Source: Candidatus Bipolaricaulota bacterium
GTDB taxonomy: Bacteria; Patescibacteriota; Patescibacteriia; UBA11705; DATKZF01
Reading direction: 5' to 3'
Length of the DNA stretch: 64,000 nt
NCBI GenBank assembly: GCA_035528115.1
Contig: DATKZF010000001.1
Span: 28,508-92,507 of the forward strand
Both the position numbers and the translations under genes were made by a program. Shown here in pieces: positions 2,979 to 49,274 of the stretch; the stretch's first letter is position 1; each line of letters starts with the position of its first letter. The notes beneath the pieces were generated by a model that was not told the origin of the DNA, did not search any database, and saw only the letters and a list, made by a program, of their open reading frames with translations.

Positions 2979-3911
2979 ATGAATTTCGTCGATCAAATTT
3001 ATAAAAAAATAGTCAATATTGAAATTCAGGGCGCGACGAGTGTCTGCGAGGCCGTGCTTTTGGCGCTGAAAAAAGAGTCGGCTGACAAAAAAATGAAAAC
3101 TTCCGCCGATTTGATAAGAAGTTTGCATCGGGTCGGCCATTATTTGAGCCGCGCCAGAGCGACCGAACCAATGGCCGAAAACGCGGTCAGGTTTGTCGAG
3201 CATCATTTGAGGCAAAATAGGGAAATGGAATTGAAAGAATTGAGAGTTTTAATAAAGCGCGGCATTGACGGATTTTTGTTTCGCTTGGCGACCAATAAAA
3301 AAAATATTCGCGATGTCGGCGAGCGGTTGATTGAAGACGAAGACAATGTCTTCACCCATTGCCATTCGTCAACGGTGATCGATGTTTTGGCCGAGGCGAA
3401 AAAGAACAAGAAGAAAATTCATGTTTTCAATACGGAAACCAGGCCTCTTTTTCAAGGCAGAATCACCTCAAAGGAATTGATTAAGAAAAAAATTGAAAAC
3501 ACGCAGGTCGTTGATTCGGCCGGACCGTTTTTCGTCAGTCAATACACAAAAGATTATGACATGGATGTTTTGTTGCTGGGTTGCGATGCTATTTCCCAAA
3601 GCGGTGACGCCGTGAATAAGATCGGTTCGCTCGGCTTGGCTTTGGCGGCCAAAGAAGCTGATATTCCCGTTTACATCGCCACGCAATCTTTAAAATTGGA
3701 TCTTGACGCCAAATATTTGAAAAATTTGGAAATTGAAAAGCGTCCAAGCAAGGAGATTTGGCCCGGCGCGCCGGAAGGCGTTGAAATAATCAATTACGCT
3801 TTTGATATTATTCCGGCCAAATACATTACCGGTTTCATTACCGAACTCGGCGTCCTAAAGCCGAAGCGTTTGGCCAAAAGCGTCAAAGCGGCTTACCCGT
3901 TTTTAATATGA
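2979..3911 (+). CDS. e2b2: Ribose-1,5-bisphosphate isomerase (eIF-2B alpha/beta/delta-like)
   Basis: eIF-2B-like family features; sits in an operon with form III RuBisCO and AMP phosphorylase, as in archaeal and CPR AMP salvage. Confidence 0.65.
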   Translation: MNFVDQIYKKIVNIEIQGATSVCEAVLLALKKESADKKMKTSADLIRSLHRVGHYLSRARATEPMAENAVRFVEHHLRQNREMELKELRVLIKRGIDGFLFRLATNKKNIRDVGERLIEDEDNVFTHCHSSTVIDVLAEAKKNKKKIHVFNTETRPLFQGRITSKELIKKKIENTQVVDSAGPFFVSQYTKDYDMDVLLLGCDAISQSGDAVNKIGSLGLALAAKEADIPVYIATQSLKLDLDAKYLKNLEIEKRPSKEIWPGAPEGVEIINYAFDIIPAKYITGFITELGVLKPKRLAKSVKAAYPFLI

Positions 3912-4354
3912 TTAAGTTGATCATTTGGGATTTGCTTGGCGTGCTCTATGAAAACGGGGAAGTCAATCCGTTTGCTCGGGCAATCTTAGCTGAATTTGAA
4001 AAAAAGAGTATTGAAAACGTTTGCGTCAGCAATCTTTCACCGGACACGGTTCATCGACTCGCTGAGCAATTAAATATCAAACATGTTATAATATGCCAAG
4101 AAGAAGGTTTTTCTAAGAAAGAAACGCCGGTTTACGAAAAGGTCTTGTCCGATTTTAAAGTAAAAGCAAATGAGGTTTTATTTATTGACGATAATGAGAG
4201 CAATTTGGCGGCCGCGCGAAAAATAGGTATAAAAACGGCCGTTTTTAGAGGAAAAAAGGGCAATGCGGATTTTGCGATTGATGATTTGGTAGATGTTTGG
4301 GGGATACTTGCACATATCATGGATCATGCCTGCCCGCCGACCTGTCCGCCGTAG
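3908..4354 (+). CDS. HAD-superfamily phosphatase (short); candidate nucleotidase or phosphoglycolate phosphatase
   Basis: DxD-type motif I (IIWDLLGVL) and motif IV (FIDDNESN); start overlaps e2b2 stop by 4 nt. Confidence 0.55.
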   Translation: MIKLIIWDLLGVLYENGEVNPFARAILAEFEKKSIENVCVSNLSPDTVHRLAEQLNIKHVIICQEEGFSKKETPVYEKVLSDFKVKANEVLFIDDNESNLAAARKIGIKTAVFRGKKGNADFAIDDLVDVWGILAHIMDHACPPTCPP

Positions 4355-4400
4355 CTTCACCGGAGGCGGAAGCTTAAGAGCGAAGGCGGGGATCACGTAT

Positions 4401-4573
4401 CATGGAGCATTGTTACGAATTAAAATCATCGAGTAGGCCGATTAATACATTTTACGAATTACATTCACTTATAGCTTTATGCCTAAGCATCTTGTAATAC
4501 GTAACAAATTACCTAAAAGCTAAATAGAATCTTGTAATTCGTAACAATGAAACAATGGAGCAATGGAGCAATC
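4401..4573. repeat. MITE-like repeat, family 1 copy B (~170 bp), ending CAATGGAGCAATGGAGCAATC, ~60 nt upstream of the rbcL start
   Basis: Near-identical to copy D (42169-42390); contains the TTGTAATTCGTAACAA core in both orientations. Confidence 0.7.
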
Positions 4574-4635
4574 TTCGCCTTGTAATCCCGGTTTCCGGTT
4601 TCAAATTACCCATTATCGATTACTAACCATAAAAT

Positions 4636-5901
4636 ATGTCCTCAATAAAATTCGTTGAAATCGGCTACAAACCAAAGGTTGAAAAGGAGCTGATCGCTAC
4701 TTTTTACATGGAGCCGCATAAAGTTAAATTTCACGAAGCGGCGGACGCCGTGGCCGGCGAAAGCTCAATCGGGTCTTGGACGGAGCTGAAAACCTTGAGT
4801 CCGAAAACCGCAGTTCGTCTGAAGGCGCGGGTGTTTTATATCAACGAGAAAAAAAAGATCATCAAAATAGCTTATCCCATGGATTTGTTCGAGAAAGGCA
4901 GTATCCCGCAGTTGCTTTCAAGTCTGGGCGGTAACATTTTCGGCATGAAAGCCGTGAAAAATTTGCGTTGGCAAGATATTGAATTTCCAAAAAAATACAT
5001 TGATTCTTTCATGGGACCGGCTTTCGGAATTGAAGGAATCAGAAAAATTTTAAAAGTGAAAAACAGAGTTCTTTTGGGCAGTATCATCAAGCCGAAAGTG
5101 GGTTTGTCCGCCTTGGCGCAAGCCAAATTATCCGCGGTCGTCTGGCTCAACGGCATTGACTTGATCAAAGACGATGAGAATTTGACGGACATGGCTTTCA
5201 ATCGATTCGAAGATCGAGTGAAAAAAGTTTTTGAATGGAAGCGCAAAGTGGAAAAGGAAACCAAACAAGAAAAACTTTACGCCTGCAATATTACGGCCAC
5301 GCCTGATGAAATGCTCAGACGCGCCAAGTTGGTTAAAAAATACGGAGGCAGGTGCGTAATGATCGATTTGGTCTCGGTCGGTTTGGACAATGTCCAGTAT
5401 TTGCGAAAACAAAAATTAGGTTTGATAATTCACGGCCATCGAGCCGGTCACGCCATGTTCACTCGGTACAAAAAGCACGGCATGAGCATGCTTGTTTTGG
5501 CCAAGTTGTCCAGATTGGCCGGCATTGATCAATTGCACACGGGCACGGTTGTCGGTAAAATGGAAGGCAATGAAGAAGAGGTCATGACAGTCAATAATTT
5601 GCTTAAAGAAGATTGGGCCGCGTATAATGTCGTCAGAGAAGATTGGAGCAATATTAAGCCGGTGATGCCGATAGCGTCGGGCGGCTTGCATCCCGGGTTA
5701 TTGCCGAAATTGATTGAGATATTGGGGCAGGATTTGATTGTTAATTTCGGCGCGGGCATTCACGGACATCCTGACGGCTCGGCTGCCGGCGCCAGAGCCT
5801 GCTATCAAGCGGCCGAAGCGATCAGTAAAGGCATTGATTTGAAAAAATACGCTGAGGATCATGTTGAATTGGCCAGAGCGTTGGAGTATTGGAAATCCTG
5901 A
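4636..5901 (+). CDS. rbcL: Ribulose-1,5-bisphosphate carboxylase large subunit, form II/III (AMP-salvage type)
   Basis: KPKVGLS, GIDLIKDDE and GGLHPG motifs; 421 aa; no small subunit; typical form III N-terminus. Confidence 0.85.
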   Translation: MSSIKFVEIGYKPKVEKELIATFYMEPHKVKFHEAADAVAGESSIGSWTELKTLSPKTAVRLKARVFYINEKKKIIKIAYPMDLFEKGSIPQLLSSLGGNIFGMKAVKNLRWQDIEFPKKYIDSFMGPAFGIEGIRKILKVKNRVLLGSIIKPKVGLSALAQAKLSAVVWLNGIDLIKDDENLTDMAFNRFEDRVKKVFEWKRKVEKETKQEKLYACNITATPDEMLRRAKLVKKYGGRCVMIDLVSVGLDNVQYLRKQKLGLIIHGHRAGHAMFTRYKKHGMSMLVLAKLSRLAGIDQLHTGTVVGKMEGNEEEVMTVNNLLKEDWAAYNVVREDWSNIKPVMPIASGGLHPGLLPKLIEILGQDLIVNFGAGIHGHPDGSAAGARACYQAAEAISKGIDLKKYAEDHVELARALEYWKS

Positions 5902-5902
5902 C

Positions 5903-6110
5903 GGATGTTACGAATTACAAGATTCACTTTGGCTTACAAACGGTTGTTACGAATTACAAGATTCTAAGGCATATTTTCTAGCTATAGATGAATGTAATTC
6001 GTAACAAATAACCTAAAAGCTAAACAGAATATTGTAATTCGTAACAGATAACCTGAAAGCTAAATAGAAGATTGTAATTCGTAACATAAACGTATTCGTA
6101 ATAAACGATT
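5903..6110. repeat. Nested or tandem cluster of family 1 MITE-like repeats (at least two units) between rbcL and the AMP phosphorylase gene
   Basis: Repeated TGTTACGAATTACAAGATTC and ATGTAATTCGTAACAAATAACCTNAAAGCTAAANAGAANATTGTAATTCGTAACA units. Confidence 0.7.
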
Positions 6111-6223
6111 AACCAAAGACCAAGGCTAGCTTATTAGCCGTAATGATTTGTAACGTATTCGTAACAAATATAACGCCAAGGCTAGCTAATTTAGAAGCAA
6201 TTATTTGTAACATGTAACGTATG
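6110..6223 (+). promoter_or_regulatory. Tandem family 2 leader element (two CCAAGGCTAGC...ATTTGTAAC units) running into the AMP phosphorylase ATG
   Basis: Same two-unit architecture found directly upstream of the VIT-family gene at 49191-49274. Confidence 0.5.
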
Positions 6224-7723
6224 GCTTTTTACCTAAAATGCAAAAAACTAGATTTCTCCACGGGCGACAAGCAAATCGTGGTGATCAATGATGAAGAAGC
6301 TGAAAGCTACGGCATTTATCCGGGAGATCGCTTGCTTTTGCAATGGAGCAAAAATAAAAAAGCGGCGGTGATCGCGGATACCACGGCCTCCAAAGTCAGG
6401 CCCGGCGAAATCGGTTTGTTTTCGGAAGTTTGGCGCAAATCCAATGTTGAATCGGGAGATATAGTGGAAGTGAATATCATGTCCAGACCTTTGTCCATTG
6501 AAACGATCAGAAAAAAGCTTTTGGGAAAACCCGTTACGTATGAAGAAATTTACGCGGTAATTAAGGATATTGTGGACGGCACGCTGGGTACCGTAGAGAC
6601 CACCTATTACGCGGCTTCAAGTTTCGTCAAAGACTATTCGATAGACGAACTTTATTATGTGGCCAAGGCCATGGCCGAAACGGGCGAGCAAATGGAATTG
6701 AAAGAGCGGATGGTGGACAAACATTCGGTCGGCGGTTTGGCCGGCAACAGAGTGACCCCTCTGGTCGTGTCCATTGTGGCTTCCTTGGGTTTGTATATTC
6801 CCAAAACGTCTTCTCGGGCGATCACGTCTCCGGCCGGCACGGCCGACACCATGGAAGTGATTTGTCCCGTTTCTTTTTCAATGGCGGAAATAAAAAAAAT
6901 AGTCAAAAAAACTCACGGCTGTTTTGTTTGGGGCGGCGGTCTTAATCTCGCGCCCGCCGATGATAAAATCATTAAAGTCTCCAGGCCGCTGGCGTTTGAG
7001 CCTTACGATAAAATGATTGTCAGCATTTTAGCCAAAAAGGTGGCCATGGGAGTTGATGATTTGGTTTTGGATATTCCGGTCGGTCCTTCGACCAAAGTGC
7101 CGGACATGGTTAAAGCCAACATGATTGAAAAAAAATTCATGGCCCTAGGCAAACGATTCGGCATGAAAATCAAAGCGGTGAAAACCAAAGCTTTGGAGCC
7201 GGTGGGCGACGGTATCGGGCCGGCCCTGGAAGCGCGCGATATTTTCCGCGTTTTGCAAAGGCATAAATTTCGACCGCTTGATTTGGAGAAAAAAGCCATT
7301 TTATTAGCGGGCGAGTTGCTCGAGCTCAATGGTTTCGCGAAAAAAGGCCATGGCAAAGCCATGGCCATGCAACAGCTTAAATCAAGCGCGGCCTGGGAGA
7401 AAATGAATGAAATCGTGGTGGCGCAAGGAGGCAAAGCCAACCAGCATTCCGAGGATTTCACTTCCGGAGCCAAGCGATATGAAATTCACGCGAAAAAGTC
7501 CGGCAAAGTGACGGCCATTGACAATAAAGCGATCAATGAAATTTGCATGAATTTGGGCGCTCCGAGCGACAAATTGGCCGGACTGCACCTCCATGTTCAT
7601 TATGGCGCCAAGGTTAAAAAAGGCGATAAATTGTTCACCGTTTACGGCTCATCGGATGACAGGCTGAAATTGGGCGTTTTGGCCAGCCGGGAGGTGGAAA
7701 TTTTCAAGATAAGCAAGAAATAA
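6221..7723 (+). CDS. deoA: AMP phosphorylase (thymidine phosphorylase family with archaeal-type N-terminal extension)
   Basis: 500 aa; pyrimidine-nucleoside phosphorylase fold plus the N-terminal extension typical of AMPpases; syntenic with rbcL and e2b2. Confidence 0.75.
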   Translation: MAFYLKCKKLDFSTGDKQIVVINDEEAESYGIYPGDRLLLQWSKNKKAAVIADTTASKVRPGEIGLFSEVWRKSNVESGDIVEVNIMSRPLSIETIRKKLLGKPVTYEEIYAVIKDIVDGTLGTVETTYYAASSFVKDYSIDELYYVAKAMAETGEQMELKERMVDKHSVGGLAGNRVTPLVVSIVASLGLYIPKTSSRAITSPAGTADTMEVICPVSFSMAEIKKIVKKTHGCFVWGGGLNLAPADDKIIKVSRPLAFEPYDKMIVSILAKKVAMGVDDLVLDIPVGPSTKVPDMVKANMIEKKFMALGKRFGMKIKAVKTKALEPVGDGIGPALEARDIFRVLQRHKFRPLDLEKKAILLAGELLELNGFAKKGHGKAMAMQQLKSSAAWEKMNEIVVAQGGKANQHSEDFTSGAKRYEIHAKKSGKVTAIDNKAINEICMNLGAPSDKLAGLHLHVHYGAKVKKGDKLFTVYGSSDDRLKLGVLASREVEIFKISKK

Positions 7724-10123: not shown

Positions 10124-10372
10124 ATGTACAACCTTTATATTCTTCAATGTTCGGATAAAACTTTATACACGGGCATTGCCATTGATTTGGAAAAGAGAGT
10201 AATAGAGCACAACGAAAGCAAGCTCGGCGCCAAATACACTCGCGGCCGGAGGCCGGTTAATCTTGTATATTCAAAAAAATTCCGCGACCGCTCCGCCGCC
10301 TCCAAAGAAGAAGCGCGGGTGAAGAGATTGTCGAGGAAAGAGAAGTTGGCTATGGTTAAAACAATTTGTTAA
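10124..10372 (+). CDS. GIY-YIG nuclease-family small protein (UPF0213/YhbQ-like)
   Basis: MYNLYILQCSDKTLYTG...IEHN matches the GIY-YIG core. Confidence 0.7.
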   Translation: MYNLYILQCSDKTLYTGIAIDLEKRVIEHNESKLGAKYTRGRRPVNLVYSKKFRDRSAASKEEARVKRLSRKEKLAMVKTIC

Positions 10373-10378
10373 AATAAA

Positions 10379-11229
10379 ATGAATATGGTCAATGAAATGG
10401 CCGCAACAAAAATAGCTTTATTTAAAGGCTGAAAAATCCGCAAAACGCTTTATCAAAACGAGTGGTGGTTTTCGGTTATAGATGTGGTTGAAGCGCTTAC
10501 GGATAGTGTAAAACCCCGTGTTTATTGGAATGCAATGAAAACAAGAGTGAAAAGCGATGATGGGATTGAGTTGTCTACAATTTGTAGACAACTGAAATTG
10601 GAATCCGCTGACGGTAAAAAGTACGAAACAGACTGCGCCAATACGGAAGGCATTTTTCGCATAATTCAGTCAATCCCGTCCCCCAAAGCCGAGCCATTAA
10701 ACGCTGGCTCGCTAAAGTTGGTTATGAAAGAGTGGCAGAAATCGAAAATCCGGAGCTGGCCACCAAACGGACGAGAAGGCTTTACAAACTTAAAGGCTAT
10801 TCCGACGATTGGATTGAAAAGAGAATGCGCGGCATCGCGATTCGGGAAGAGCTTACCGATGAGTGGCGGGAACGCGGCGCGCGGGAGCAAAAAGATTATG
10901 AAATTCTGACTGCTGAAATTTCCCAGGCGACCTTTGGCATGACACCAAACGAATATAAGAAACTTAAAGGATTGGAAAGGGAAAATTTGCGAGATCATAT
11001 GGATGATTTTGAGCTGATTTTTACAATGCTCGGAGAAAGATCGACAACGGAAATTCATCGCGCAAAAGATTCTAAAGGAATAAAAAAATTAAAAGACGAT
11101 GCCAATGCCGGCGGGCAAATAGCGGGAAACGCGAGAAAAGAATTGGAGAAAAAAATAAAAAGGCCGATTGCAACAAAAAATAATTATTTAAAGAAACCTG
11201 AAAATAAAAAATTATTATCGGGCGAGTAA
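10379..11229 (+). pseudogene. dinD: DNA-damage-inducible protein D (DinD) / Bro-N family gene, disrupted by an in-frame TGA at 10430-10432 and a -1 frameshift near 10698
   Basis: Three reading segments (MNMVNEMAATKIALFKG*, KIRKTLYQNEWWFSVIDVVEAL...SPKAEP, then AIKRWLAKVGYERVAEIENPELA...YSDDWIEKRMRGIAIREELTDEW) together rebuild a DinD-like protein. Confidence 0.6.
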
Positions 11230-11239
11230 AAAATCAACT

Positions 11240-12862
11240 ATGCTTGAACAACAGCTGGAAAAATATTTTAAGCTTAATCAATTCCGTCCGGGGCAAAAAG
11301 AAATCATCGAAGCGATTTTGGACGGCAAAGACACGGTGGCCTTGATGCCCACCGGCGGCGGCAAGTCGTTGTGCTATCAATTGCCAGCCATTTTGCAGGA
11401 TAAACTGACCATTATCATTTCGCCCCTGATCGCGTTGATGAAAGATCAAGTGGACGGCTTAAACGCTCGAGGCGTGGCCGCCACTTTTATCAACAGTTCG
11501 ATTTCCGTGGCGGAAATACAGTCGCGAATGGAAAAAATTTTGGCGGGAGAGATAAAAATTTTATACGTGGCGCCGGAAAGACTGGACGCTCTGCGAGCCA
11601 ATAAGTTTTTTTCCGATTTGACCGTCAGTCTTTTGGCTGTGGATGAGGCGCACTGTGTTTCCCAGTGGGGGCACGATTTTAGGCCCGATTATTTGCAAAT
11701 AAAAGAGTATATTCGAAGTTTCAAATCGCGTCCGACAGTCGCCGCCTTTACCGCCACGGCCACGCCCGAAGTTAAGCAAGATATCATGGATAGGCTGGGC
11801 ATGGTCTCGCCCGTAGTTTTTACCAGCGGATTTGATCGCCCGAATCTGAAATTTTTTGTCCAGAAAGACATTAAGCCCAAGCAAAGAGTGGATGAAGTTT
11901 TAAGATTGGTGAAATCAATCGAAGGCTCGGGCATTGTGTACGCATTGACCAGAAAAGAGACCGAAGCCATCGCCGATCATCTCAACCGCCACGGCATTGG
12001 CGCGGCCGCTTATCACGCGGGCATGGTAGGAGGTCGGCGGGAAAAAATTCAAGATGAATTCATGGAAAATAAACACAAAGTGATCGTGGCCACGATCGCT
12101 TTCGGCATGGGAGTGGATAAGGCCGATATTCGATTTGTCATTCACTCGGGCATGCCCAGAAACATGGAAGGCTACTATCAGGAGGCCGGCAGAGCGGGGC
12201 GGGACGGCGAACCGGCCTATTGCGTGCTTTTGCACAGCAAAAAGGATGTGACGGTTCACAACCATTTTATTTTTTTGGACAGGCATGGAATGCTCAGTCA
12301 AGGAAAAAGCTGGGAAGAAACGAATCAATTGATTAATCTTAAAAAAGATAAATTGGAAAAAATGGTTGAATACGCCACCGCTGACACATGCAGAAGAAAA
12401 ATGATTCTTGAATATTTCAATGATCCGGCCGCGCGGCAATTGAATCACGATTGCCAAGGCTGCGACGTTTGCCTTGAGTGGGAGAAAAACAGCCGGCTGC
12501 CAGACGAAAAAGAGATTCCCGATCAAGTCGGGAATGACGGTAATTTGGTTGAATTGAGCGAGACCGTGGCTCAAACGATAAATTTGTATAAGCAAAATTA
12601 TTCAATGGAGCAAATCGCCAAAGCGCGGTCACTCGGCGAGAGCACTATTTTCGGCCACCTTATAAAGTGGTATTTGGCCGGCGGCGAAATTGATTTGGAC
12701 AACATGATCACGAGAGATGAAGAAAATTTGATATTATCCGCCATGGCCGCGGCTGATGATTATCGGTTTTTGTCCGCGATCAAGCGGCATTTGCCCGAGG
12801 AAATCGGTTATGAAAAGATAAAATTGGTGCTGGCCAAGATTAAAAGGATTGAGTTGCATTAA
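11240..12862 (+). CDS. recQ: ATP-dependent DNA helicase RecQ (helicase core, RQC Zn-binding, HRDC)
   Basis: TGGGKS Walker A; DEAH (AVDEAHCVSQWGHDFRPDY); 4-Cys region; C-terminal HRDC-like segment. Confidence 0.85.
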   Translation: MLEQQLEKYFKLNQFRPGQKEIIEAILDGKDTVALMPTGGGKSLCYQLPAILQDKLTIIISPLIALMKDQVDGLNARGVAATFINSSISVAEIQSRMEKILAGEIKILYVAPERLDALRANKFFSDLTVSLLAVDEAHCVSQWGHDFRPDYLQIKEYIRSFKSRPTVAAFTATATPEVKQDIMDRLGMVSPVVFTSGFDRPNLKFFVQKDIKPKQRVDEVLRLVKSIEGSGIVYALTRKETEAIADHLNRHGIGAAAYHAGMVGGRREKIQDEFMENKHKVIVATIAFGMGVDKADIRFVIHSGMPRNMEGYYQEAGRAGRDGEPAYCVLLHSKKDVTVHNHFIFLDRHGMLSQGKSWEETNQLINLKKDKLEKMVEYATADTCRRKMILEYFNDPAARQLNHDCQGCDVCLEWEKNSRLPDEKEIPDQVGNDGNLVELSETVAQTINLYKQNYSMEQIAKARSLGESTIFGHLIKWYLAGGEIDLDNMITRDEENLILSAMAAADDYRFLSAIKRHLPEEIGYEKIKLVLAKIKRIELH

Positions 12863-16221: not shown

Positions 16222-16249
16222 AATCAGTTGCTGGATTTTAGCTTTTGTT

Positions 16250-16360
16250 GGAATGACAGGCCACAATGAGTCTGCATGGAATGGAAAGCCCGGATGAGTC
16301 TGAGAAAACTAATTATTATGCCGACCCTTTATCGTCATTCCCGCGAAAGCGGGAATCCAC
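16250..16360. repeat. MITE-like repeat, family 3 (~110 bp), copy 1: starts GGAATGACAGG, ends GTCATTCCCGCGAAAGCGGGAATCC hairpin
   Basis: Near-identical direct copy at 16725-16835; inverted partial copy at 16681-16738. Confidence 0.7.
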
Positions 16361-16388
16361 AAGAGTATCGTCGGCATCAGTATTGTTT

Positions 16389-16676
16389 ATGCGCTCCTAT
16401 TATGTTTACATGTTGGCCAATAAAAGAAATGGAACCCTTTACACAGGAGTTACCAATGATCTTGCCAGAAGACTCGATGAGCATAAGAACGATGTTAATG
16501 AATCATTTACGAAAAGGTATCAAGTCCACACATTGGTTTATTTTGAAGAACATGAGTGCATTGATGAAGCTATTTGGAGGGAGAAATGCATTAAAAAGTG
16601 GAGAAGAAAATGGAAGTTAGCATTAATTGAAAAAGAAAATCCTGATTGGAGGGACTTATCGAATGAATTAATTTAG
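16389..16676 (+). CDS. GIY-YIG nuclease-family small protein (second paralogue); ORF track start at 16266 lies inside the repeat
   Basis: YYVYMLANKRNGTLYTGVTNDLARRLDEH GIY-YIG core; first 31 codons of the track ORF are repeat-derived (duplicated at 16742). Confidence 0.65.
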   Translation: MRSYYVYMLANKRNGTLYTGVTNDLARRLDEHKNDVNESFTKRYQVHTLVYFEEHECIDEAIWREKCIKKWRRKWKLALIEKENPDWRDLSNELI

Positions 16677-16680
16677 GCCT

Positions 16681-16738
16681 GGATTCCCGCTTTCGCGGGA
16701 ATGACAGGTCAGGTTAGTCTGTGCGGGAATGACAGGCC
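16681..16738. repeat. Inverted partial copy of the family 3 repeat end (GGATTCCCGCTTTCGCGGGAATGACAGG)
   Basis: Reverse complement of the repeat terminus. Confidence 0.6.
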
Positions 16739-16835
16739 TAAATGAGCCTGCATGGAATGGAAAGCCCGGACGAGTCTGAGAAAACTAATTATTATGCCGA
16801 CCCTTTATCGTCATTCCCGCGAAAGCGGGAATCCA
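16725..16835. repeat. MITE-like repeat, family 3, copy 2 (direct repeat of 16250-16360)
   Basis: ~95% identical over ~110 bp; accounts for spurious ORF 16742..17047. Confidence 0.7.
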
Positions 16836-16871
16836 GAAAACACAGTTTGAAATTAAACCAAACAAATACTT

Positions 16872-17819
16872 ATGAAACATTTAATCTCACTCAAAGAAAA
16901 TTCGAAAGAAGACATTTTGAAAATGATCGATCTGGCTCAAAAACTGAAACAAAAAAAGAACAACGGCGAATTGACGCGCTATCTGGAAGACAAGACTTTG
17001 ATCATGCTTTTTCAGAAAACTTCCACCCGCACCCGTTTGTCCTTTGAATCTGCCATGACCGAGCTGGGCGGTCACGCGATTTTTCTTGACTCGCGCACCA
17101 CGCAGTTTTCTTTGTGCGATTTTCGAGATGAGATTCAGGCGGTGATGCGATTTGGCGCGACCTTGATGTTTCGCGCGCAAAAGGCGGCTGACGTTATGAC
17201 CGCGGCTTCTTTCAATAAAATTCCGGTCATTGACGCTTGCAGCGAGAAATATCATCCGGCTCAGGCGATCACTGACATGCTCACGATGATTGAAAAGAGC
17301 GGGGGACTTGAAAACATAAAAAAAGTGGTTTGGCTGGGAGTTGAAAATAACGTCATGAATACTTTGATGCTGGTTTGCGTGAAATTAGGCGTCAAATTCA
17401 CCATTATAGCGCCGGAAGCTGATATTGACAGCGTTGATGAGGAGTTAAAGCGCCAAGCCGCGGAAACGAGCCTGGTCGAGCGGACGCTGGATTTGGCCGA
17501 GGGGTTAAAAGACGCGGATTTTGTCCACACCGACACTTGGATGAATATGGAGTTTTTTGACAACGGCCAAGTCAAACCGCAAATGCAAGCGGAATATGAA
17601 AGAAGAAAAGCCACGTTTTCTCCTTATCAAATCAACGCCGATTTAATAAATAAATACTGTCCTCAAGCCAAAATAATGCACTGCATGCCTTGCCACATCG
17701 GTTATGAAATTTCTCGCGACGCCATGGATCATCCAAACAGCGTTGTCTTTGATCAAGCGGAAAATAGGCTTCACGCTCAAAAAGGCATTTTAATGTGGCT
17801 TTTGGACAGGGAAGTTTAA
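16872..17819 (+). CDS. argF: Ornithine carbamoyltransferase-family enzyme (divergent substrate-binding motif)
   Basis: STRTR carbamoyl-phosphate motif; HCMPC (HCLP-like) motif; 315 aa; TDTWMNME replaces the canonical DxxxSMG. Confidence 0.6.
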   Translation: MKHLISLKENSKEDILKMIDLAQKLKQKKNNGELTRYLEDKTLIMLFQKTSTRTRLSFESAMTELGGHAIFLDSRTTQFSLCDFRDEIQAVMRFGATLMFRAQKAADVMTAASFNKIPVIDACSEKYHPAQAITDMLTMIEKSGGLENIKKVVWLGVENNVMNTLMLVCVKLGVKFTIIAPEADIDSVDEELKRQAAETSLVERTLDLAEGLKDADFVHTDTWMNMEFFDNGQVKPQMQAEYERRKATFSPYQINADLINKYCPQAKIMHCMPCHIGYEISRDAMDHPNSVVFDQAENRLHAQKGILMWLLDREV

Positions 17820-42168: not shown

Positions 42169-42390
42169 TCATGGAGCCAATGGAGCATTGTTACTAATTA
42201 CAATCATCCAGTAGGCCGATTGATATATAATTACGAATTACAAAAAGCTGATTAGCTTTAAACGATTCTTACTAATTACTTTCACCTATATCCTTAAGCC
42301 TGAGAATGTTGTAATTCGAAACAAATAACCTAGAAGCTAAATGGAAGATTGTAATTGGTAACAATAAAACAATGAAGCAATGAAGCAATC
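42169..42390. repeat. MITE-like repeat, family 1 copy D (~220 bp); its terminal CAATGAAGCAATGAAGCAATC supplies the start codon of the next gene
   Basis: Collinear with copy B (4401-4573). Confidence 0.7.
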
Positions 42391-42685
42391 TTTTCTCCAA
42401 ATATATATGCAAAAAGAAAAAGAAAACGAAAAAAAATCCATCAAGCTTGAAGTGCTTGAGAAATTGTCCGCGCTTATTATCGCGGGCTTTGGTTTGGTCG
42501 CGGCCTTGGCTTGGAATGACGCCATTAAGGCGTTGTTCAATAAGTTTTTTCCGGCGCCTTCCGGCAATCTGGTCGCCGGATTGATTTACGCGGTCGCCAT
42601 AACCGCGATTGTGGTAATTGTCACCATCCAATTCGGCCGGATGATCAGGCGCGCCAAAAACGTGGTTGATAAATTGGACAAATAA
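42380..42685 (+). CDS. Small membrane protein (hypothetical); ATG lies inside the repeat terminus
   Basis: ORF; two TM helices. Confidence 0.4.
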   Translation: MKQSFLQIYMQKEKENEKKSIKLEVLEKLSALIIAGFGLVAALAWNDAIKALFNKFFPAPSGNLVAGLIYAVAITAIVVIVTIQFGRMIRRAKNVVDKLDK

Positions 42686-49047: not shown

Positions 49048-49190
49048 ACAACCGTTTATGGTTAGCGGGAGTTTTCCAATTTAAAATCAAAAATAAAAAC
49101 AGGCAATTGAAAGGTTGCTTTATTTTTCCCAAAGGGATTCTGTTGGGATAAATTTGTGACCATTGGTAACGAAACAAGAAATACTACAAC

Positions 49191-49274
49191 CAAGGATAGC
49201 TTAATAGACGTGGTAATTTGTAACTAATATAACGCCAAGGCTAGCCAATCGGCGGCAATCATTTGTAACGTATG
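49191..49274 (+). promoter_or_regulatory. Tandem family 2 leader element (two CCAAGG[CA]TAGC...ATTTGTAAC units) ending at the VIT gene ATG
   Basis: Aligns unit for unit with 6110-6223 upstream of the AMP phosphorylase gene, including AATATAACGCCAAGGCTAGC and TTTGTAACGTATG. Confidence 0.5.

Follow-up and report, generated by a model that had tools for sequence, protein, structure and literature searches.

A small nuclease gene in a stretch of 64,000 nt (hereafter, the window, to which all whole-window counts and repeat scans refer) of contig DATKZF010000001.1, filed as Candidatus Bipolaricaulota bacterium, very probably belongs to an Ssn locus, in which an ssnA-type gene lies amid its cognate hairpins, the NTS or SRM. 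The Ssn system was described by Chenal et al. (Nat Commun 2025, PMC11893778), who gave the NTS, or Neisseria Transformation Sequence, as CGTCATTCCCGCGMAVGCGGGAATCYRG with one mismatch allowed, and who showed that SsnA of N. meningitidis (NMV_0044, cd10448) is a 94-aa single-domain GIY-YIG protein that binds the NTS as single-stranded DNA only and cuts a few nucleotides upstream of it. The mutants Y6A, Y17A, and E64A are without cleavage, and SsnA reduces the transformation of N. meningitidis by NTS-bearing DNA, the system restricting single-stranded DNA with an NTS that comes in during transformation (PMC11893778). The locus in the window is a fresh example of this already described system and leaves the existing knowledge of it unchanged.

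As judged by comparison of sequences, the protein encoded in the window is a close relative of the Neisseria SsnA, and the hairpins around its gene match the Neisseria NTS. A tblastn search of the N. gonorrhoeae chromosome NZ_CP119140.1 gave a single match (E 3e-23), to a 94-aa open reading frame (ORF) that is the single NTS-flanked ORF and was taken as the SsnA ortholog; blastp against this ORF gave 52% identity, without gaps over residues 5-94 (E 1e-33), which, with the gonococcal ortholog as reference, is below the threshold of E < 1e-10 used for homology in PMC11893778. An alignment of 32 homologs has Y6, Y17, and E64 as invariant columns at exactly these positions, and they are aligned identically in the gonococcal protein. 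The Pfam domain PF01541 spans residues 3-75 of the 94, with no second domain above the cut-off. More than 2,300 close relatives of the protein exist in public data, and the homologs are 88-127 aa long, with repeat-derived extensions in the longer ones. No structure of SsnA was found in the PDB, where the protein matches only two distant UPF0213 proteins, 1ywl and 1zg2 (E 4e-5 and 6e-4); these small UPF0213/YhbQ-type proteins share its approximate size and the GIY-YIG core, but the similarity is distant.

The start of the gene requires a correction. The ORFs 16266..16676 and 16742..17047 both begin within a repeat and have identical N-termini, MSLHGMESPDESEKTNYYADPLSSFPRKRES, which bears out the original prediction, made from the DNA letters alone, that the annotated start of the nuclease ORF and the second, spurious ORF are both repeat-derived. 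Homologs begin with MKSYYVY-type sequences, and the real start is the ATG at 16392, for a protein of 94 aa, because the alignment with the homologs places it there. The public annotation (P0001, 88 aa) uses the internal Met at 16410 and loses the catalytic Tyr6 of the GIY motif. Exact-sequence look-ups of the 88-aa and the 94-aa forms found neither on record.

The conserved element of the locus is a 28-nt hairpin, CGTCATTCCCGCGAAAGCGGGAATCCAG, which is present in three copies in the window, all of them at this locus. Against the NTS consensus these copies have one mismatch (16333-16360), one mismatch (16679-16706), and none (16809-16836), where no match is expected by chance; the core motif GTCATTCCCGCGAAAGCGGGAATCC occurs exactly three times (16334+, 16681-, and 16810+), compared to 0 expected from 100 shuffles. 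The published degenerate SRM pattern has five matches in the window versus 0.03 expected, three at this locus and two elsewhere that are dubious. The hairpin reads cgtc-ATTCCCGC-gaaa-GCGGGAAT-cca, that is, a CGTC/TGTC tag, an 8-bp stem starting with AT, a 4-nt loop, and a CCA tail. The same tag, stem, loop, and tail define the CGTC-1 family of REPs, described by Di Nocera et al. (2013, PMC3733652), which includes the Neisseria dRS3 and the Rickettsia RPE-6 repeats.

A perfect 26-nt inverted repeat joins 16334-16359 with 16680-16705 and bounds the gene, the two hairpins having their tails toward the gene and their tags outward. The original prediction had placed an inverted terminal motif on a 110-bp element. 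Such a motif is present in the form of GGAATGACAGG, found at 16250, 16698, and 16726, which is the 3' half of the inverted hairpin copy; however, it is the 28-nt NTS inverted repeats, not the 110-bp direct repeats, that form the conserved termini. Similarly, what had been read as an inverted partial copy at 16681-16738 is inverted, but it is not partial, consisting of an inverted hairpin in full (16679-16706) and, after it, the beginning of the second direct-repeat unit.

The tie between the hairpins and the gene is general. Eighty genomic loci were fetched in which the encoded proteins are 56-69% identical to the window protein; they span Alpha-, Beta-, Gamma-, and Deltaproteobacteria, groups of the candidate phyla radiation (CPR), Chloroflexota, Bacteroidota, Planctomycetota, and others. 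In these loci, GC-rich perfect hairpins occur at 0.72-0.83 per 100 bp adjoining the gene versus about 0.03-0.15 beyond 500 bp, so that the density beside the gene is 10-15 times the background, which agrees with the earlier proposal of a link between the hairpins and the GIY-YIG gene. Within 150 bp of the gene, 59 loci have a hairpin upstream, 62 have one downstream, and 48 have hairpins on both sides. For comparison, Chenal et al. found at least one related motif near 71% of SsnA homologs and motifs on both sides of 42% (PMC11893778). The original prediction had also considered that the repeat might be a generic REP element; elsewhere, the same hairpin is indeed that of a generic REP family, with hundreds of copies in Neisseria, Rickettsia, and Sphingomonas (PMC3733652, PMC11893778), yet the tie to the GIY-YIG gene is strong.

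The common form of the hairpin in the 80 loci is (C/T)GTC, an 8-bp stem beginning with AT, a 4-5-nt loop, the complementary stem, and CCAG. The stems covary (ATTCCCGC, ATTCCGGC, ATACCGGC, ACCCCCGC, and GTCCCGGC), the tag and the tail being constant. The commonest strict orientation, found in 26 loci and in the window, has the tag outward on both sides. Among the 77 loci that have both flanks, inverted repeats of at least 20 bp across the gene are present in 52, and direct-repeat brackets of at least 50 bp, and up to 292 bp, are present in 23 (about 30%), across phyla. The architecture seen in the window is therefore recurrent rather than peculiar.

Local tandem amplification of NTS units beside ssnA seems common. 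On the Thermodesulfobacteriota chromosome OZ245366.1, two ssnA copies (L059 and L073) lie 124 kb apart, each flanked on both sides by long arrays (>1 kb) of a two-hairpin unit of about 112 bp. In the closest homolog (L082:3846-4447), the sequence ATAATGCCGA…GTCAT upstream of the NTS is present in three tandem copies, and downstream an NTS-containing unit of about 76 bp is duplicated. The gonococcal locus (L089:1355-1960) has intact NTS tags that face ssnA, opposite to the window, and decayed NTS fragments that lie nearer the start codon than the intact copies. The gonococcal record, NZ_CP119140.1, of 2.17 Mb, is filed as a plasmid in PLSDB but is evidently a chromosome.

By homology with the characterised enzymes, the window protein is predicted to bind the NTS hairpin only when this is single-stranded, as during replication, DNA uptake, or repair. 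It would then cut the NTS strand a few nucleotides 5' of the CGTC tag and would cut neither double-stranded DNA nor RNA. The nuclease activity on the hairpin termini for which an assay had been proposed is already known for homologs, SsnA binding the hairpin as single-stranded DNA and cutting just upstream of it (PMC11893778). The core unit is the cassette 16333-16706, which comprises NTS(+), a 31-bp leader, the gene, and NTS(-). Since the tails are toward the gene and the tags outward, the predicted cuts would fall just outside the cassette, on opposite strands.

Several points weigh against this identification or limit its reach. Specificity varies among Ssn homologs (PMC11893778), and the activity attributed to the window protein is a prediction. 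The reference protein is an ORF of N. gonorrhoeae taken as the ortholog of the characterised N. meningitidis protein, and not that protein itself. Finally, the NTS copies in the 64 kb number only three and all lie at the gene, so that a genome-wide role like that of transformation restriction in Neisseria is not evident here.

The direct repeat around the gene was the feature that first drew attention to it, as two copies of about 110 bp and about 95% identity, and this description is confirmed. Over the span then given, moved by one base, the 111-bp units 16250-16360 (unit A) and 16726-16836 (unit B) are identical at 106 of 111 positions (95.5%); blastn between the units gives 96.4% identity over 110 bp, and a repeat scan of the window extends the match to 125 nt at 92% identity (16238-16362 and 16714-16838). 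This 110-125-bp direct repeat is two copies of a head-to-head NTS dimer, one on each side of the gene, composed of a decayed NTS(-), a 74-bp spacer, and NTS(+). Head-to-head dimers with a conserved spacer of 20-100 bp are also formed by CGTC-1 REPs (PMC3733652). The dimer in the window is lineage-specific, and in unit A its inverted hairpin copy has decayed, 16231-16263 having 79% identity to the intact one at 16679-16711. Duplication or recombination at the hairpins is the most likely origin of the direct repeats. The features of the locus are collected in the table.

Table. Features of the ssnA locus and its neighbours (positions in the window)
Feature	Position	Strand	Remarks
Flavodoxin-like gene	ends 16221		left neighbour of the locus
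Decayed NTS hairpin, left arm of dimer A (CTGGATTTTAGCTTTTGTTGGAATGACA)	16231..16258	-	stem ruined by substitutions; intact inverted NTS is 79% identical
74-bp spacer of dimer A	16259..16332		3' end has ATGCCGAC (16318-16325), complementary to GTCGGCAT of the ssnA leader
NTS/SRM hairpin (CGTC-1 REP), left terminal inverted repeat	16333..16360	+	CGTC tag, 8-bp stem ATTCCCGC, GAAA loop, tail CCAC toward the gene; hairpin is the centroid structure
31-bp leader, NTS to start codon	16361..16391	+	contains GTCGGCAT (16370-16377)
ssnA homolog, 94-aa single-domain GIY-YIG nuclease	16392..16676	+	stop codon included; Pfam PF01541, E 2.5e-17
Inverted NTS, right terminal inverted repeat	16679..16706	-	tail to gene, TGTC tag outward; 1 mismatch to consensus
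Decayed or partial NTS, left arm of dimer B (…TTAGTCTGTGCGGGAATGACA)	about 16707..16734	-	from repeat families and alignment
74-bp spacer of dimer B, second direct-repeat copy	16735..16808		from repeat scan, blastn, and alignment
NTS hairpin, exact consensus match	16809..16836	+	independent contig L088 starts inside
Ornithine carbamoyltransferase gene	starts 16872		35 bp downstream of NTS 16809..16836

An independent assembly bears on the reality of these repeats. The Logan assembly of SRR8554643 recovers the variants specific to unit A, in contig L086, and its contigs stop inside both repeats, L086 ending at window position 16325 and L088 starting at 16811. It follows that the reads contain the repeats, which are no product of the assembly that contains the window.

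When folded as DNA, the 121-nt unit A is no more stable than its shuffles (z -0.6), and the only robust fold within it is a 20-nt hairpin. The RNA fold of 16670-16845 is strong (z -8.6) because the inverted NTS copies pair. An Rfam scan of the whole window found four tRNAs only, with no match at the ssnA locus. The upstream NTS lies within an outer stem, ATGCCGAC/GTCGGCAT, which also occurs in the locus of the closest homolog (76% identity), with a compensating change. As a feature of the family it was rejected, the longest flank complementarity being 4.63 versus 4.63 in shuffled flanks (41 loci); the outer stem is lineage-specific.

The NTS-ssnA-NTS layout has been likened to an insertion sequence, and the mobility of the cassette is a hypothesis that Chenal et al. 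had already raised (PMC11893778). In its strongest form, which overlaps in part with the identification as an Ssn locus, the cassette would be autonomous and recently active, NTS-ssnA-NTS would move as a unit, and the direct repeats would mark an insertion or a unit-length excision product. This is rather unlikely. The cassette has the terminal inverted repeats, perfect over 26 nt, that are also those of an insertion sequence or a MITE, but no transposase, target-site duplication, further copy (in the window or the JGI metagenomes), or empty site was found, the available relatives being too distant to be decisive on the last. The only ORF in 16333-16706 is the GIY-YIG nuclease, with no recognised transposase (DDE, HUH, or serine/tyrosine recombinase), and neither boundary has a target-site duplication. 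To our knowledge, no strand-transfer or ligation chemistry is known for GIY-YIG nucleases, which counts against the idea of a self-moving cassette. The original prediction had taken GIY-YIG modules to be the catalytic units of IS200/IS605-associated proteins; as far as we know they are not, IS200/IS605 elements using HUH tyrosine transposases.

Comparisons among homologous loci point both ways. Two copies in one metagenome-assembled genome (MAG), L064 and L078, are 88.5% identical over 417 bp in flanks that are otherwise unrelated, and the homology has exact limits, GTCAT at its start and GACG at its end; however, coming from a MAG, the two may not belong to one genome. The closest homolog has a different gene neighbourhood, and the homologous proteins are still 56-69% identical across phyla, but the Bradyrhizobium homologs (L050, L063, and L066) and L005/L040 lie in conserved contexts, which indicates vertical inheritance. 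The ssnA ORF has a GC content of 0.35 and, at third codon positions (GC3), of 0.36, below the GC3 of 0.48-0.55 in the neighbouring genes. This low GC3 (36% versus 48-55%) suggests horizontal acquisition, and the cassette itself was probably acquired in this way.

Signs of recent movement were sought in related sequences. No further copy of the 110-bp unit was found in the window or in the JGI metagenomes, where a scan with the unit interior GCATGGAATGGAAAGCCCGGA gave one 21-mer match, on a high-GC unrelated contig, which is due to chance. No empty site was found either, the nearest relative genome being too distant to inform on this point: its flavodoxin-like protein is 75% and its RecQ 80% identical to those of the window, and synteny is lost. 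Apart from the source contig, the identical flavodoxin-like and carbamoyltransferase proteins were found only on short Logan contigs, which are interrupted within the repeats. Hence, of the proposal that this is a mobile or recently mobilised cassette, the layout resembling an insertion sequence stands, whereas no recent mobility is seen, there being no empty site, target duplication, or further copies.

A related possibility concerns the function of the direct-repeat bracket. The NTS(+) copies are 476 nt apart on the same strand, and cuts 5' of both would free a unit-length strand that contains the gene and one repeat unit, an outcome that would favour a mobile cassette and that is reminiscent of the single-stranded intermediates of IS200/IS605. 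That the bracket actually functions in this way is unlikely. If the released strand were reused as a donor or as a circle, Ssn would be a mobilising enzyme for CGTC-type REPs, and NTS-ssnA-NTS would, if this were true, represent an autonomous/non-autonomous element pair of a new kind.

A further reading, that of a classical GIY-YIG homing endonuclease that would break both strands of an empty hairpin site and then be copied in by repair, is very improbable. The GIY-YIG domain, a weak match to TIGR01453 (group I intron endonuclease; E 4e-5, 23.7 bits versus a cut-off of 56), and the presence of a repeated target sequence on both sides of the gene are consistent with it, but the window protein is a single 94-aa domain without the DNA-binding extension that is linked to the nuclease in endonucleases of the I-TevI type. 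Nor is the intron, intein, or phage setting of the latter found here, the gene being intergenic, between those for the flavodoxin-like protein and ornithine carbamoyltransferase, and not within an intron, an intein, or a conserved host gene. Moreover, the characterised Ssn members neither bind nor cut double-stranded DNA (PMC11893778). Finally, that the hairpins are generic palindromes (terminators or mRNA stabilisers) beside the gene by coincidence, or that the duplication was made in assembly, is hardly credible, for although hairpins of this type form a high-copy REP family elsewhere (PMC3733652, PMC11893778), this reading is largely refuted by the hairpin density beside the gene in the 80 loci, by the consensus matches, all three of which in 64 kb are at ssnA, and by the independent assembly, which recovers unit A and breaks at both repeats, while the copies differ at 5 of 111 positions and no T-run terminator follows any of the hairpins.

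The identification as an Ssn locus can be set beside the systems already described. With SsnA/NTS of N. meningitidis and its homologs (PMC11893778), the window shares the 94-aa single-domain GIY-YIG protein with Y6, Y17, and E64 kept, and the 28-nt hairpin that matches the NTS consensus with 0-1 mismatch and has copies on both sides of the gene. It differs in its host, an uncultivated Patescibacteria-like MAG; in having three NTS copies in 64 kb rather than hundreds per genome as in Neisseria; in the orientation of the hairpins, the tails facing the gene here and the tags of the intact NTS doing so in the gonococcus; and in the direct-repeat bracket of 110-125 bp, the term "direct repeat" being absent from the main text of PMC11893778. 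The CGTC-1 REPs have the same hairpin and the same head-to-head dimers with a conserved spacer, but CGTC-tagged REPs seem to have no transposase of their own (Di Nocera et al. 2013, PMC3733652), no dedicated enzyme having been found for them there, whereas the repeats in the window are low-copy and confined, within the 64 kb, to the ssnA locus.

The RAYT/REPIN systems (RAYT, REP-associated tyrosine transposases) are also comparable in that inverted REP hairpins and REP dimers lie on both sides of one gene and in that hairpins are recognised in single-stranded DNA. They are different in that the enzyme in the window is a GIY-YIG nuclease where theirs is an HUH tyrosine transposase, and CGTC replaces GTAG as the tag. 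Unlike for RAYT, we know of no covalent strand-transfer chemistry for an Ssn-type enzyme. Searches of the literature on GIY-YIG together with REP, REPIN, RAYT, YhbQ, or COG2827 gave no match; a search combining CGTC, REP, and GIY-YIG led to PMC11893778, and no literature on Ssn later than that paper was found in the library searched.

With this locus the Ssn family gains a Patescibacteria-like example, in which the NTS of Neisseria is kept base for base in a very distant lineage although the proteins are only 52% identical. It also gives modest extra support to the idea, already present in PMC11893778, that Ssn-NTS descends from, or is, a mobile element, because the homology of the cassette stops exactly at the NTS tags, about 30% of the loci have a direct-repeat bracket, and the GC3 is low.

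A second small GIY-YIG gene, at 10124-10372, encodes 82 aa (Pfam E 5.5e-15). This is the paralogue that had been pointed out at 10124; it exists, but its identity to the ssnA homolog is just 33%, no hairpin repeats adjoin it, and it is of a different, UPF0213/YhbQ-like subfamily. Next to it, the ORFs 10484-10909 and 10732-11229 overlap in different frames, and the first has a BRO-N domain (E 2e-6); together (10484-11229), they look like a frameshifted phage-type gene, which corresponds to the "dinD relic" noted earlier.

A fourth hairpin of the super-family lies at 12515-12535, inside recQ (11240-12862). On the minus strand, it reads CGTC-ATTCCCGA-cttga-TCGGGAAT, and its 5-nt loop is that of the CGTC-2 type. 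The hairpin, which is in frame, encodes EIPDQVGNDG and sits in the linker between the Zn-binding and HTH_40 domains. The motif was found in 0 of 120 RecQ homologs. A clean insertion could not be demonstrated, as the linker varies in all homologs and is of similar length. Intragenic REPs in replication and repair genes have been reported (Di Nocera et al. 2013, PMC3733652).

Unrelated, AT-rich intergenic repeats occur between ordinary genes at 1437-1559, 4402-4579, 5944-6190, 42180-42396, and 49190-49273. They form a family, TGTAATTCGTAACAAATAACCT…, of 73 nt and 75-92% identity, accompanied by AACAATGGAGCAATG runs. The region 2979-7723, as read from the ORF translations, appears to encode proteins like ribose-1,5-bisphosphate isomerase, RuBisCO (4636-5901), and AMP/thymidine phosphorylase (6221-7723), a cluster that suggests an archaeal-type nucleotide salvage pathway. 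Such a pathway is known in CPR. For both the flavodoxin-like protein and RecQ, the best relatives (75-80% identity) are without exception from Patescibacteria/CPR, and the label of the record, Candidatus Bipolaricaulota, may be wrong.

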